IMG/VR virus record: IMGVR_UViG_2690316115_000013
Location: 1 to 5,976 of that record
DNA length: 5,976 bases
Reading direction: 5' to 3' (one strand)
Source of the DNA: a virus
Lineage: Duplodnaviria > Heunggongvirae > Uroviricota > Caudoviricetes
Within the stretch, counting starts at the first letter, position 1; each line of letters starts with the position of its first letter. Of the stretch, positions 1 to 5,976 are shown in pieces. A program made the position numbers.

Positions 1-3000
1 CTCTCGTCTGGGGAATATCTCCCCGGCAGCCTTCAGGGAAAAATATCATCAGATAGCTGCTTAAAAAAAGAACAAATGGTAGTGTCCGCTATTGTCAGTA
101 CACCTCAGTTATCGAGGTCGCGACGGCGGGAATCTGGTGGTTCAGCAATAATTGTGATGCGAAGTCGTGATTTAGTGAAAATGTCTAATCTGAGTTGCCG
201 GATGATTTGCTGTACGTCTTTTCGGTATTTCTGGCCTTTATCGCTGATGTAGTACTGGCTTCCCCGTCTTCGCCAGTAGGTATTCACCGTCGGCGGCCAG
301 GGAAGCACAAACTCATATTCATTCATGACTTAATCTTCCCCTCCTTCAGCAATATCGCCTGCGTCCTGATCACGCCTTCCAGGTGGTAAAGTCTGGCGTC
401 GTTGTTGTCGAGAATTCGGGTGCGTCGGTCGATCTCCGCGTGGCAGTCACTACAAGCCCATGCACCGATCAGGTCGTCAGGCTTCATTCCCGTTCCGCAA
501 ATTCCAGCCATCCGGTAATGTGCCAGAACTGTCGTTTCAGGATTGCCATTGCATACGCCGTAAATCCGTACCTGGCATTCTCTGCCGCGCGCTTCTTTGC
601 GTAGGTTAGCCATTAAGCAGCCTCCCCTGTTACTTTCAGCATTCCGTTATCGAGCGGCTTTCTGGTCAGCCACTGTTGACCACGCCCGGTGATTTTTGTG
701 GTGAACGAGATCTGTATTCCGTGATTTGTATTGACCGCTGTTTCTTTCACTGTGAAATAGCCGCGATCCATATATTCCTGCATTGGCACATTGCGCCGGG
801 AACCTGAAGCAATAAGGATTTTGTGATCGCGCATCCACGCAAACAGTTTGTTTGGACCAATACCAACAACCTTTGCAAAGTTTCCAATCAAAATTCCGCT
901 GGACTCGCCAACGCGATCGGCAAACTCAACTTTAGGTGCTGCGAGAGCAAGCTGTTTCTCCAGTTCAGCCTTCTGGTCTTCAAGGTCGGCCGCAAGGCGC
1001 AATGCCTCAGAAAAGGTTTGTGGTATTTTCGCGGTTGCCCCTTCAAGCTCTCGCCAACGGTCAACAAGACGAGCGGTGAATTCCGGCGACAATTGGGCGA
1101 CGACAATAATGCTGTCTCGCTTACCTTGTTCGCCTTCGAAGACGTAAGCCTCGACACTACGGCGCAGTCCTAAGTTATTGATTTTTTCGAAAACCTGCAA
1201 TGCAGGAAGTTGAATAACTCCAGATTCAGCCAGGCGCTCTATTGATATTTTTACGTTATCTGGACGACTCCCCACCAACTCAGCGATTTCAATGCTGGTC
1301 ATTTTGATGATGCTGCTATTTATCAGCTCATTCATTGTCATGTCCTCTCATATTGAAAATTCAGCAATAAAAAACCCAGCCGAAGCTGGGTTTGTTAAGT
1401 TGTCAATTGTCAGTAGCGATGCAGTGAAGGCGGCAACTCTTTGTTCTTAAGCCTTTCCCATGCCAGAAGGTTCGTCGGCCCGTCAGGCTCATAAATATCT
1501 ATATCCCGCGTGTGATTAATTAAAACGCCCCTCGCCCTCCCGATGATATACGAGAACTCATAGCCGTAGTCGTGGCATATGCCGGAATAGCCAGACTGAA
1601 TCAGTTTTAATGCGGGATACAACTCACGGAACAATGCCTGTGAGCGGTTGGCATAATCCCACAGCCATACAAGGCTGTCTGTTTCTTTTGCGGAAAGCCC
1701 GTTGGGCTTCTTCTCTTGTTTGCCAGTATTTTTCTCGCACTGGCTGAAATAGCAGTCTTCCAGTTTTTCGAACACATCCCACGCCTGATCGGTTTCTAGC
1801 ATTTTGGCGTGACGGGCTGCGCCTCGTTCTGTCCAGAGGATGAGGGAGCGAACGTTACGGGCAATTTTCACAGAGTAGTTAAAAGCTACTCTGTGCTTGA
1901 ACTCACGTAAAGTTTCACCTTCAAGTTTGAAGAAGTGTTTTTCCTCAATGAAACGACCTTTGTTTTCGTGGTGATTCTGGCGAATACGAATAGCTTCTGT
2001 GCCGTAAAGGTGCGCCAAAAGTTCGGTAGTGATAACGGGGATCTGCTTGTAAGTAATCGTGGAGAGTGTTTCAACAGAGATTTGAGTTGTCATAATGACG
2101 CCCTCGAGTGGTTTCTTAATAACTCACCACCGACGACGCCAATCGTCTGGTGGTGAACTGTGCAGGGTTGGCGTAACCGGGAAACCGACCGGCGCGGATC
2201 TCTCCGCCCCCACACAGCCCACCATAATTCAGATGTGCGCGTGCATACGACAATAAAAAACACGCTCGCGGCGTGTATCTGTCGCGGTCTCTATCCAGGA
2301 CGCCAATCCCGACGCCAGATTTTGCTGGCGCGTGAGGAATATAGCCCCGAATAAATCATCACGTCAATCACCTTGTTTTCCTCGCACGATGTCTTAGCCA
2401 CCGGATATCCCACAGGTGAGCCGTGTAATTGAAGGCTTTAACGTCAGATTCTTTTGGGATTGGCCTGGGTTTATTTCTGGAACGTTTCGTTGGAAGGTAA
2501 TTGCAGTTTTCACAGACTATATCGGTAATGCTTCGTCGCTGTCGTCTCATTCATACCTCCTGTCGGTAAATCTGACACCCTGCTCCACAGCCCAGGAAGT
2601 TGTGTACTCAATCAGGCTTGCCATACGCTTCACGCTCATCTGCGCACTGCTTTCGCGGATATTGACGTATTCACCTTCAAGACCAGGCAAAACATCAGCT
2701 TCCTGTTTTGTCGCCACGGCATGACCGCTGATTAACAAAACTTTCCACTGTTCTGGTTTTAGCCATCTGCCGCACCACTGAACCTGTCGGGAGATATCAG
2801 CGACCATCGCGTGAAATTTGGCATTTTGATCGAGATTCCGCTTGTAATCGGTGATGCGGATCGTAACGGGTTTGTCTTTATCGAGAGTTGTTGCAAGGAT
2901 GGCGTTAATGGCGAATTGTTGCTGCTGCTTACTTCGGAGGAAGATAGTCTGGTTCATTATTCCCTCTCACTGGATTTTCCCAACAAAAAAGGAGCCGAAG

Positions 3001-5976
3001 CTCCTTTAGTTTCAGAATTCAAATTGTCTTGCCCGCAGGCTTTTCAGCATTGGCATGGCCCGCTGGATAACGGAACTTGACATGTCGAGACGTGTTACCT
3101 CCCTCAGTAGCGCGTCTCTGTTCTTCGTCACCATGTAGATGGTCTCAAACGCAATGTCATACAGCTTGTTCGTGTATGAGGAGTTCAGCTCTTTCATAAT
3201 GGGATACAGGTGTTTGCTGATGTCCTGGGCTTTTTCCATCCAGAGCTGCATGTAGCAAAGGAGGATGATTTCTTCGGCTGTGAATTGTGGCTGAATCTGC
3301 GGCTGCTGTTCGGTTGGTGCTGTTTTTCCCTGGCTGAAATAGCAGTCTTCCAGTTTTTCGAATACCTCCCACGCCCGATCGGTTTCGAGCATTTTTGCGT
3401 GACGGGCTGCGCCGCGTTCTGTCCAGAGGATGAGGGAGCGGGCATTTTTACCAACTAACCCGATTGTTTCGGGTCTGTTCTTAAACTCGCGTAATTCGTT
3501 TTTTTCAATTTTAAAGTAATGCTTTCCGGGCATGAATCGCGTCGTGTTGTTCAGAAAGTTATCAGAAATGTTTTTGATTTTTGTTCCGTAAAGGTGAGCC
3601 AACAGTTCAGTAGTAATTACGGGGATCTGGTTATAGGTAACAGGGGAAAGGTTTTCGACAGAAATTTGAACAGCCATAATGACCTCGCGTTTCGATAATT
3701 TTTACCTCGCCACCGTCAGGTGCTAATCATCGTGGTGGCGAACTGTGCGGGGTTAGCACTACCGGTCGAAACATCCGGCGAGCCTTTCGGCTCCCCCACA
3801 CAGCCCGCCATAAATCGCGAATGTGACTGTGCTTAGCGCATAAAAAAACCGCCAGCGCGGTTATGCACCGTTTCGATATCCGGGGTGCTAATCCCGACGC
3901 CAGGTTTTGCTGGCGCGTGAGGAATATAGCCCCGAACACGCGACGTTGTCAAACTGATGGCATTGCAGATCCCTACGCAATGTAACACTATGTGTTATAC
4001 ATTAATAACGGAACAAAAAATGCGCATTTTTAAAAACGCCTGGTTTGAGCGATTTGCACGCAAAACAAAATATCCGACCAATCACTGCGCGAAATTGTTA
4101 AACAGGCTGATAACGGGCTTATCTCAGCAAACCTGGGTAACGGCGTTATCAAGCAACGTCTGCCACGAGTCGGTGGCGGCAAATCTGGCGGTTATCGCAC
4201 AATCATTTTCTATCGCGTCGGCACAAGGGCCTTTTTCGTATATGCATACGCAAAAAATGAACGTGAAAATATAACCGCTACTGCGGAAAGTGCATTTCGG
4301 AAGGCGGCTCCTCACGTACTCAATCTAACAGATGAACAACTGGCACAACTGATTCTACAGGGTCAGTTTACGGAGGTACCCAATGAGTAAAAATTACCGC
4401 AGTGATGCGCTTGCATCCGTACATGAAATGATGGAATCGCTTCATGATATCGGCGCAGTAACGAAACAGACTATGCGAGAATTCGATGAAACTTGTCTCC
4501 AGCCAGCGCCGGTAATGTCTCCGGAAAGGATCCGTGCACTGCGCGAACGAGAGCATCTGTCTCAACCTGTTTTTGCCAGATACCTCAACGTCAGTAAAAA
4601 CCTGATATCAGACTGGGAACGTGGTGTAAAACGGCCGGGAGGTGCCGCTCTTCGCCTTCTTTCAGTCGTAGAGAAAAACGGGATCCAGGTAATATCATGA
4701 TACTCCAATACAACAAAACCCGCCGAAGCGGGTTTTCATTAGAAGCACCTTTAGTTTTGCTGTTCTATTTTAAGCTTGATAGTTTCATACAAAACAATAG
4801 TTGCGCCTGTTTTACATAATTCCCGGCTGTCATACGCACGAGACCAATAACACAACCAGTTCTCGAGATCTTCTCGAGTATAGGTTTTGCAGGCCAGTCC
4901 CTCTGCCATTTCCACGATTTCATCGCCTGGTGCTGTTAACTCATAGCCATTCAACAACAAGAAGACATAACCAGCCATCATAGCTGTTCGTTTGTTTGCA
5001 TTAGCAAATGGATGATTCTGAATCAGACTTTCAATCAATACTGATGCCAGTACAAACATGTCATTAGTCTGTTCATACCATCGAACCATGCTGGGACGAG
5101 ACTGAGAAGAACTTAAATTATCAACACTCAGCACACTAACAGGTTCATCTGGTGTTTGAAGCTCAATTAAAAGGCGATTAATTTCGGTAAGATCATCAAA
5201 CGAAAGGTAGTGCACTCCTTCAACAATCTCAGCCATAGAGCACAATACCCATCATTACACTTTTGAAAGTTCTTCCATTGCCTTCTCGTAACGAGAAAAA
5301 CCGAAATCGAAAGCATTTTTCACCTGCTCACGATGAGTGCAATTTTCATCGATAGCCGGGCGCGGAGCTGCCACAACGCTTTTATCGCGAGGGGGAATAG
5401 TCAATCGCGGGTGTTTTTTTAGTGCGTAGCTCATTGGGTGTACCCTTACTTCTCCGTCCTGTTCTTTAACAAAAATCAAGTCAATACAAAATTAGTCAGG
5501 CTAATGTTGTTAGCATAGCCTAATACCAATCGTATTCACAACCACAGTAAGTGAAAAAACCCGCCGAAGCGGGTTAAGTGCGGGTGCGTTGAGGATGCCT
5601 GACACATCAGAGGTGGCGAGGGATTTCTCCCTCGCCTGGTCTCTTACTCCTCAGGTTCGTAAGCTGTGAAGACAGCAACCTCCGTCTGACCGGTTCGGAT
5701 TCGTACCTCGCAGAGGTCTTTCCTCGTTACCAGTGCCGTCACTACGACGGTAATACAGATGACGATCAGGGCGACTAACATCGCCTTTTGCTGCTTCATA
5801 GCCTGCTTCTCCTTGCCTTTCGGCGCGTAAGAGGCTAACCTACATGTGTCTAGCATGAAATTGGCCTCAGATTAATGTTAGGCGTCTTGCAGGACGCGTA
5901 ATGTTAACTGGGGCTTTTCTCTGTCTGCCTTACGGTGGCATGCCCGAGGCAGACAGCCTCAAGCACCCGCAGCAAT

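Follow-up and report, generated by a model that had tools for sequence, protein, structure and literature searches.

The immI operon of phages P1 and P7 comprises the c4 antisense RNA, its a1/b1 and a2/b2 sites, icd, and ant. The b2 site covers the icd ribosome-binding site, icd is translationally coupled to ant, and c4 is released by RNase P processing, details that reportedly go back to Citron and Schuster in 1990 and to Biere et al. in 1992. A second arrangement, isrK-orf45-anrP of Gifsy-1 in Salmonella, has been studied experimentally: its read-through transcript is translationally silent, the short IsrK opens this transcript in trans, and anrP is translated by coupling to a 45-codon upstream open reading frame (uORF) (Hershko-Shalev et al. 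2016, PMC4825925). The corresponding Rfam families were defined on enteric phage sequences (PMC2864571), and a 2025 review treats IsrK and c4 as separate systems (PMC12197685). Here we analyze 5,976 nucleotides (nt) of a virus of the Caudoviricetes (IMG/VR record IMGVR_UViG_2690316115_000013, positions 1 to 5,976; this whole stretch is called the window), which hold part of a lambdoid prophage with two ORF6N-domain genes, antA and antB, that share a near-identical internal repeat of 111 nt. We think it probable that the window carries two copies of a known RNA-gated antirepressor module, and that the 111 nt are the constant joint of this gene family, where recombination reassorts N- and C-terminal modules.

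Each ant gene appears, from its sequence context, to be the last part of a self-contained module made up of a promoter-like site, a small RNA (sRNA), a c4-type RNA, a uORF, ant, and a terminator; we call these modules cassette A (ending in antA) and cassette B (ending in antB). Gifsy-1 has the same parts in the same order: a promoter, the IsrK sRNA and its terminator, the c4-like region STnc1160, over which the uORF runs, and an ORF6N antirepressor. The N-module of Gifsy-1 AnrP is of the antB allele type, with residues 1-118 homologous in both window genes; its RNA recognition site (a-site) belongs to the UUGGCGU class, as does that of cassette A, and its 111-nt joint is identical to both window copies at 98 of 111 positions. 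Unlike the window genes, AnrP has an unrelated and short C-module (187-residue protein, phrog_2379) that is not P22_AR_C. The Gifsy-1 locus follows Q, whereas the window cassettes lie upstream of Q in the nin region, and the window prophage, unlike Gifsy-1, has two module copies.

The likeness to P1/P7 immI is that the c4 and a1b1 elements match Rfam families, that a copy of the target site stands on either side of c4, and that few compensating bases set specificity, as in P1/P7 heteroimmunity (PMC12197685). Unlike immI, the window is without an icd homologue (no window ORF in the interval from c4 to ant is icd-like), the uORF overlaps c4 itself, and the b-site is nearly constant, so that specificity would come from the a-site alone; moreover, the antirepressor is of the ORF6N/P22_AR_C type and sits in a lambdoid nin region, not in a P1 plasmid prophage. 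Closest by position is the ninE-ant-roi segment of Shiga toxin (Stx)-converting phages (VT2-Sakai, 933W-like, phi24B, and Min27), to which cassette A and the KilAC gene downstream of it correspond. Those phages have one cassette, whereas the window has a second one upstream of ninB, on a backbone that otherwise resembles an O104:H4 prophage.

Lambdoid phages are said to be mosaics that exchange modules at short conserved boundaries (a view associated with Susskind and Botstein, with Juhala et al. in 2000, and with Clark et al. in 2001), and KilA-N, Bro-N, ORF6N, and P22AR domains have reportedly been shuffled, as described by Iyer, Koonin, and Aravind in 2002. The window genes follow this pattern in that a conserved stretch between variable modules is the crossover site and in that N and C modules combine freely; the difference is that the joint is intragenic, where two domains meet, and that the position of a crossover can be narrowed down to a few tens of bases. 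We regard the system as ordinary and largely known, an instance of phage mosaicism with no new element; the survey of classes and the covariation of a2 reported below extend what is known from P1/P7 and overturn none of it.

A Near-Identical Repeat within Two Antirepressor Genes

The two genes and the two copies of the repeat are the following (aa, amino acids):

1410-2093, minus strand: antA, 227 aa, ORF6N plus P22_AR_C, phrog_377 at E = 3e-85
3012-3677, minus strand: antB, 221 aa, ORF6N N-module plus P22_AR_C C-module, phrog_377 at E = 1e-81
1740-1850, minus strand: constant joint, copy A, codons 82-118 of antA
3330-3440, minus strand: constant joint, copy B, codons 80-116 of antB, 37 residues

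A reading of the DNA made without database searches (the sequence-only reading) had picked out the repeat as much better conserved than the codons around it, and both points are borne out. Copies A and B match at 105 of 111 nt as direct repeats spaced by 1590 nt, in exact runs of 26, 17, 8, 10, 9, 2, and 33 nt. The local excess of identity is genuine and not due to chance: in a codon alignment of antA with antB, no other stretch of 111 nt is as similar (94.6% vs. a median of 34%, which is far from uniform identity along the genes), and the flanks of the segment are 46% (codons 34-81) and 38% (C-terminal half) identical between antA and antB. The repeat unit nevertheless exceeds 111 nt, with codons 1-35 matching at 79% (repeat family D2). 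The noncoding leaders of about 260 nt upstream of both genes match as well (repeat families D8, D6, and D4 at 82, 79, and 92%), because each gene is the last part of a complete module.

Both genes encode ORF6N domains (Pfam E = 1e-19 and 2e-20) and flank ninB-ninE, as had been stated, although "tandem" is not an apt word for nonadjacent direct repeats with two genes between them. AntA scores 70.9 bits for ORF6N (PF10543) and 85.1 bits for P22_AR_C (PF10548), and AntB 73.1 and 30.7 bits, against cut-offs of 27.8 and 22.4; the P22_AR_C E-values of the two C-terminal halves are 3.6e-24 and 3.4e-7. Positions 1-213 of the 213 in the phrog_377 profile ("anti-repressor Ant") are matched by both proteins, which we take to be ORF6N/P22_AR_C antirepressors with predicted activity. 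Their N-terminal domains are homologous and their C-terminal halves much more diverged, in line with the sequence-only reading, but the halves it had called barely alignable do align (BLASTP, 23% identity, E = 2e-10). The idea of domain-swapped paralogs falls away, both C-termini being P22_AR_C and both proteins matching phrog_377 end to end; at 23% identity, the divergence within this one family is nonetheless beyond the ordinary. Sequence and profile searches found no relatives of solved structure for the two proteins.

Homology of the N-module stops at about residues 116-125 in distant relatives and other PHROG families, and typically at residues 116-124 in relatives found with seeds outside the joint. 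After the motif YFSQ, both proteins continue into a hydrophilic stretch rich in K, Q, P, and E that resembles an interdomain linker. The joint thus seems to close the conserved part of the N-module, just ahead of a permissive linker, and would encode the 37 most protein-constrained residues at the end of the ORF6N module.

Two further kinds of similarity around the joint were set aside. Spots in the KilAC gene with weak similarity to it (repeat families D5 and D7) encode only a shared VFEK motif and were taken as chance, and alternative-frame ORFs across the joint (1607-1777, 1624-1782, 3157-3372, and 3194-3454) are open only through its near-identity and run into unconserved flanks.

A Constant Joint between Variable Flanks

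We surveyed 158 related loci from viral contigs, which gave 76 distinct alleles for a codon alignment. Mean pairwise nucleotide identity is 93.2% (median 94.6%) over codons 82-118, which are exactly the repeat, compared with 73% over codons 1-33, 49% over codons 34-81, and 55% over the C-terminal half, and the island of conservation has sharp edges at codons 82 and 118. The 76 alleles contain 48 distinct joint sequences. Each window copy has a median joint identity of 95.5% to all other alleles, and the antA-antB value of 94.6% ranks only 40-41 of 75. In the same loci, the median identity of backbone genes to the window copy is 91.9% for ninE and 96.6% for ninB. The joint is at the level of the backbone genes; therefore, it is the flanks that are unusually diverged, and not the joint that is unusually conserved. 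Grouping at 90% identity yields 20 classes for codons 34-81 and 13 for the C-terminal halves, in 38 combinations, consistent with a joint at ordinary backbone divergence set between two regions that would each comprise many deeply diverged alleles.

Natural Recombinants in Pathogenic Escherichia coli

The sequence-only reading had proposed that the direct repeats could recombine, deleting ninB-ninE and leaving a chimeric gene. We built the two chimeras expected from recombination at the repeat and searched for them in complete E. coli genomes. Leader B, N(B), joint, and C(A) occur as one contiguous piece at 99% identity, in many O157:H7 genomes among others, and leader A, N(A), joint, and C(B) occur at 94.5% identity in O104:H4 strains. 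All four combinations of N and C modules exist: N(A)-C(A) in ∼479 genomes, N(B)-C(A) in ∼337, N(A)-C(B) in ∼74, and N(B)-C(B) in ∼27, these counts being approximate and made at 80% or more coverage of 1-kb queries.

Crossover positions can be read directly from two of these alleles. The Xuzhou21 allele is 99.6% identical to B in its leader, 100% identical to B in its N part, and 99.4% identical to A in its C part, and at the six informative sites of the joint it reads A, B, B, A, A, A, so that the switch lies inside the joint. The O104:H4 allele is the reciprocal, with an N part 99.2% identical to A, a C part 99.1% identical to B, and again a switch inside the joint. The Xuzhou21 cassette occupies the ninE-ant-roi position; the O104:H4 prophage has the backbone proteins of the window, with a single cassette upstream of ninB and none downstream. 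The exact runs of 26 and 33 nt at the ends of the joint are not far from the shortest homology on which E. coli recombines efficiently. It would appear that antA and antB are related to common O157:H7 and O104:H4 alleles by crossovers within the joint, and that homologous recombination there can swap N and C modules between phages. The repeat as a recombination substrate is thereby upheld, but not the predicted deletion in this prophage: the 1590-bp deletion derivative was absent among the best 25 of 1194 matching records, in which similarity ended 24 bases short of the end of the query, where the window's own upstream context begins. The locus offers a clean base-level case of intragenic module exchange in lambdoid phages, with both reciprocal recombinants in known pathogens (O157:H7 and O104:H4).

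Alternative Explanations for the Near-Identity

The sequence-only reading had suggested gene conversion, by which the paralogs of this one prophage would recently have homogenized the 111-nt tract and so produced the contrast with diverged flanks. A tract that is 95% identical with sharp edges would fit, as would direct repeats 1590 bp apart in one genome and next to ninB, the gene for a recombination mediator in lambda. The A-B identity, however, lies close to the median for allele pairs in general, each copy has 39-40 closer alleles in other phages, the joint is diverse across the family, and the six A-B differences persist; the informative joint sites of the Xuzhou21 and O104:H4 alleles, moreover, show mixing between phages and not within a genome. 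We consider conversion between the two copies highly improbable. Purifying selection on the protein alone, with the segment being merely the best-conserved part of the ORF6N fold and having no special role in recombination, is also very unlikely in our view, although part of its premise is sound. The joint is the best-conserved protein stretch in every relative, Firmicutes included (60-95% aa identity vs. 21-79% for codons 1-33 and 34-75% for codons 34-81), and it holds 17 of the 25 invariant columns in an alignment of 25 sequences. What such selection leaves unexplained is the 93% nucleotide identity, since elsewhere in these genes even invariant residues have codons saturated with synonymous change; nor does it account for crossovers that fall within the segment while the flanks on its two sides match different parents at 99-100%, or for the 38 N-by-C combinations.

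The remaining proposal, also raised by the sequence-only reading, is a functional nucleic-acid element within the 111 nt that constrains synonymous sites, be it a folded RNA, an sRNA or c4/IsrK pairing site, or a site of protein binding or processing. To its credit stand a synonymous identity among enteric prophage alleles that is higher in the joint than at other invariant codons (figures below), the retention of the nonpreferred codons of CTC-ATC-CTC-TGG-ACA-GAA (residues LILWTE) in 11-17 of 19 relatives from other genera, and the finding that the top crude c4 and IsrK duplex sites lie in or beside the joint. The antA joint also contains ACGCCAA (1804-1810, minus strand, codons H95-A96-K97), the a' sequence of cassette A's own c4, which is commoner in its own a-site class (13 of 24 alleles, vs. 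6 of 33 in the other five classes). Yet this association is loose, copy B is without an equivalent, and the motif is probably there by linkage, although it is still unexplained; the duplex energies track the high G+C content of the joint. There is no excess RNA folding in either copy against shuffled and flanking controls (z = +0.77 and +0.37 in the sense direction, 0.0 and +0.84 in the antisense), no promoter or terminator was found inside the repeat, and Rfam gave nothing within the joint save a chance-level mir-74 match (E = 0.17). Relatives from other genera, which were sampled with peptide seeds outside the joint, show the same protein stretch always best conserved (86-95% aa identity in other Enterobacterales, 57-91% outside), with nucleotide identity falling from 74-89% to mostly 59-80%. 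Synonymous codon identity to antA drops to 0.56 in other Enterobacterales and then to 0.40 outside them, where the flanks have 0.28-0.48, and nucleotide identity equals that of neighboring backbone genes. Because synonymous and nucleotide identity decay with taxonomic distance, we read the near-identity in E. coli and Salmonella as probably due to a strong constraint on the protein combined with recent common descent and exchange, without a universal RNA or DNA signal. An element of this kind is improbable on balance, and a universal one is ruled out by the relatives from other genera. A small unexplained residue remains in the modest synonymous excess in other genera, the kept LILWTE codons, and ACGCCAA in copy A.

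Two more specific candidates were rejected. A Rho-utilization site in the joint was dropped, the excess of C over G being stronger over the initial 100 nt of the genes than within the joint, and for pairing of c4 or IsrK with the joint, the peaks of the crude scan follow G+C content and ACGCCAA is only loosely linked to class.

Several observations weigh against the reading of the locus as two RNA-gated modules reassorted at a constant joint. Among E. coli and Salmonella alleles, synonymous identity is ∼0.83 in the joint vs. ∼0.45 at the invariant residues of codons 19-32 (values read off a per-codon table and not computed), and in other Enterobacterales, the 0.56 of the joint is a modest excess over the 0.41-0.48 of its flanks; recent shared ancestry and gene flow explain this excess but do not prove that it arose so. 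The crossover data give neither direction nor timing, and the genome counts, as said, are approximate. The promoters, sRNAs, and regulation described here rest on consensus matches and homology. The uORF stops lie 30 and 38 nt before the ant ATG, unlike the orf45 stop in Gifsy-1, which overlaps the anrP start (ATGA), and translational coupling of uORF and ant may differ from that in Gifsy-1 or be weaker. Finally, predicted pairing of the cassette B c4 with cassette A targets is still possible through three G-U wobbles (-10.0 kcal/mol), so that orthogonality of the two switches may be one-sided.

RNA Leaders of the Two Cassettes

The RNA genes upstream of each ORF, which identify the system, had gone unmentioned in the sequence-only reading. 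In order of transcription, the parts of the two modules other than the ant genes are as follows:

Cassette B
3923-3952, minus strand: promoter-like site, TTGACA, 18 nt, TATATT; 11 of 12 consensus matches; position conserved in related leaders
3842-3929, minus strand: IsrK-like sRNA, which is also the c4 a1b1 element; isrK 74.3 bits at 3916-3842, c4-a1b1 47.4 bits at 3929-3877
3891-3885, minus strand: a1 site, UUAGCAC
3862-3847, minus strand: terminator hairpin of the IsrK-like sRNA, followed by a T run
3731-3815, minus strand: c4-type antisense RNA, Rfam C4 75.1 bits
3759-3753, minus strand: a', GUGCUAA
3741-3734, minus strand: b', UCGCCACC
3716-3811, minus strand: predicted uORF, the orf45 counterpart, 31 codons; begins inside c4 and stops 38 nt before the antB ATG
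3726-3720, minus strand: a2 target, UUAGCAC, within the uORF
3714-3707, minus strand: b2-like site, GGUGGCGA, just downstream of the uORF
2985-3011, minus strand: intrinsic terminator with UUCG tetraloop, stem 3007-2988 plus T run, repeat family D3

Cassette A
2338-2367, minus strand: promoter-like site, TTGACG, 18 nt, TATATT; 10 of 12 consensus matches
2255-2344, minus strand: IsrK-like sRNA, which is also the c4 a1b1 element; isrK 75.5 bits at 2331-2255, c4-a1b1 50.5 bits at 2344-2292
2306-2300, minus strand: a1 site, UUGGCGU
2276-2260, minus strand: terminator hairpin of the IsrK-like sRNA, followed by a T run
2146-2229, minus strand: c4-type antisense RNA, Rfam C4 66.7 bits
2174-2168, minus strand: a', ACGCCAA
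2156-2149, minus strand: b', UCACCACC
2124-2225, minus strand: predicted uORF, the orf45 counterpart, 33 codons; stops 30 nt before the antA ATG
2142-2136, minus strand: a2 target, UUGGCGU, within the uORF
2131-2124, minus strand: b2-like site, GGUGGUGA, within the uORF
1370-1396, minus strand: intrinsic terminator with UUCG tetraloop, stem 1393-1372 plus T run, repeat family D3

Every leader match in both cassettes exceeds the Rfam gathering score (isrK 50, c4-a1b1 46.7, and C4 45). The predicted promoters look constitutive. By homology with Gifsy-1 isrK-orf45-anrP and P1/P7 immI, the leader RNA most likely keeps ant untranslated, and pairing of c4 a' with two cognate sites, a1 in the IsrK-like sRNA and a2 just upstream of ant, would control the release of translation. 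The b2-like sites, read from the sequence, lie ∼19-21 nt upstream of the ant Shine-Dalgarno and hardly vary between classes.

In both leaders, the Rfam isrK and c4-a1b1 matches overlap one another. The comparison suggests that IsrK of Salmonella and c4/a1b1 of P1/P7 are one kind of switch.

Leader A, the ninE-ant leader with its IsrK-like and c4-like RNAs, is also present at 98.9% identity in VT2-Sakai and in many Stx1a and Stx2a phages, most records of which leave it unannotated or carry hypothetical-protein calls only. In many Stx phages, this leader turns out to be an IsrK/c4 module, of a kind that comes in six specificity classes with covarying sites.

Six Classes of RNA Recognition Sites

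The a' sequence, in a single-stranded stretch of c4, is complementary both to a1, in the loop of the second IsrK hairpin, and to a2, between c4 and ant; the target/a' pairs are UUGGCGU/ACGCCAA in cassette A and UUAGCAC/GUGCUAA in cassette B. Among related prophages, a1 and a2 are perfectly complementary to their own a' in all 33 distinct leaders, which fall into six classes, whereas shuffling a' among leaders gave a mean of 9.3 matches and a maximum of 18 in 2000 shuffles. Cassettes A and B represent two of these six a-site classes, which covary at three sites. The second complementary pair (UCACCACC/GGUGGUGA in cassette A) is nearly invariant.

Predicted duplexes favor cognate pairing by 4-9 kcal/mol. 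Cognate energies are -15.2 and -10.3 kcal/mol for A and -13.9 and -9.0 kcal/mol for B, whereas c4 of A on B sites gives -6.6 and -3.3 kcal/mol and c4 of B on A sites -10.0 and -4.9 kcal/mol. The a-site sequences differ between A and B, and largely separate switches are therefore predicted; we infer their independence, as we do the binding partners of the N and C modules.

Tentatively, and with rather less than even confidence, we suggest that in enteric lambdoid prophages, Stx phages included, the six classes serve antirepressor switches as orthogonal RNA "address codes," such that an IsrK-like sRNA would trans-activate, or a c4-like RNA would trans-repress, only cassettes of its own class in coresident prophages. 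If so, a prophage with two cassettes of different classes would operate two RNA-gated antirepressors independently of each other, with N and C specificity modules that differ between them, and the models for Gifsy-1 IsrK and for P1 c4 would describe a single mechanism from two sides, with a2 also pairing with c4. As antirepressors can induce prophages, class-specific RNA cross-talk between coresident prophages could bear on the induction of Stx phages.

Genomic Context and Neighboring Loci

Nine complete E. coli genomes, including FORC_069, ML35, and NCCP15648, have a lambdoid prophage whose nin region matches the window at 100% identity, and the full 1360-3960 arrangement occurs in only 9 of 5426 complete genomes. 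The genes of interest all lie on the minus strand; read in order of transcription, their RefSeq annotations are an ORF6N protein (3012-3677), NinB, NinE, "phage antirepressor Ant" (1410-2093), a KilAC antirepressor, a DUF1364 protein, RusA, NinH, and Q, which places both cassettes in the nin region upstream of rusA, ninH, and Q. The KilAC gene (613-1341) is at the position of roi, and antA is at that of ant in Stx phages, between ninE and roi, where phage matches are annotated ant/roi. Two genes separate the cassettes:

2547-2957, minus strand: ninB, Pfam NinB at 1e-53
2368-2550, minus strand: ninE, Pfam NinE at 2e-41

The double-cassette arrangement is rare but not unique. A second double arrangement, which looks independent, occupies 2438-5243 of the E. 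coli prophage OkiPb01678 in the order ninB-dam-ninE-cassette-ninB-ninE-cassette-KilAC. As in the window, the upstream cassette has the a' sequence GUGCUAA and the downstream one ACGCCAA; the comparison covers these two examples.

Three toxin-antitoxin loci are stacked before the nin genes: doc, hok/sok, and a RelE-like pair. The RelE/ParE-family toxin gene upstream of cassette B (4020-4390, plus strand) appears to be split by a frameshift, with MRIFKNAWFERFARK in one frame from 4020 and the remainder (GGGKSGGYRTIIFYR) in another at 4052-4390, which RefSeq begins at a non-ATG start; its helix-turn-helix (HTH) antitoxin gene (4383-4700) is intact. Positions 4751-5245 of the minus strand encode a Fic/Doc "death-on-curing" toxin, and a small ORF just upstream of its gene (5255-5479) may be its antitoxin. 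The hok/sok type I locus (5644-5968, minus strand), annotated HokD in RefSeq, matches Rfam sok with 116.9 bits at 5794-5968.

The window contains four similar UUCG-tetraloop terminators of family D3 (1370-1396, 2985-3011, 4713-4739, and 5554-5580). Subthreshold isrK, rsmX, and istR matches at 4712-4802 and 5554-5641 are probably D3 hairpins. Each of four inserts on the minus strand (antA, antB, doc, and hok) has one D3 hairpin at its 3' end, an organization that resembles that of morons.

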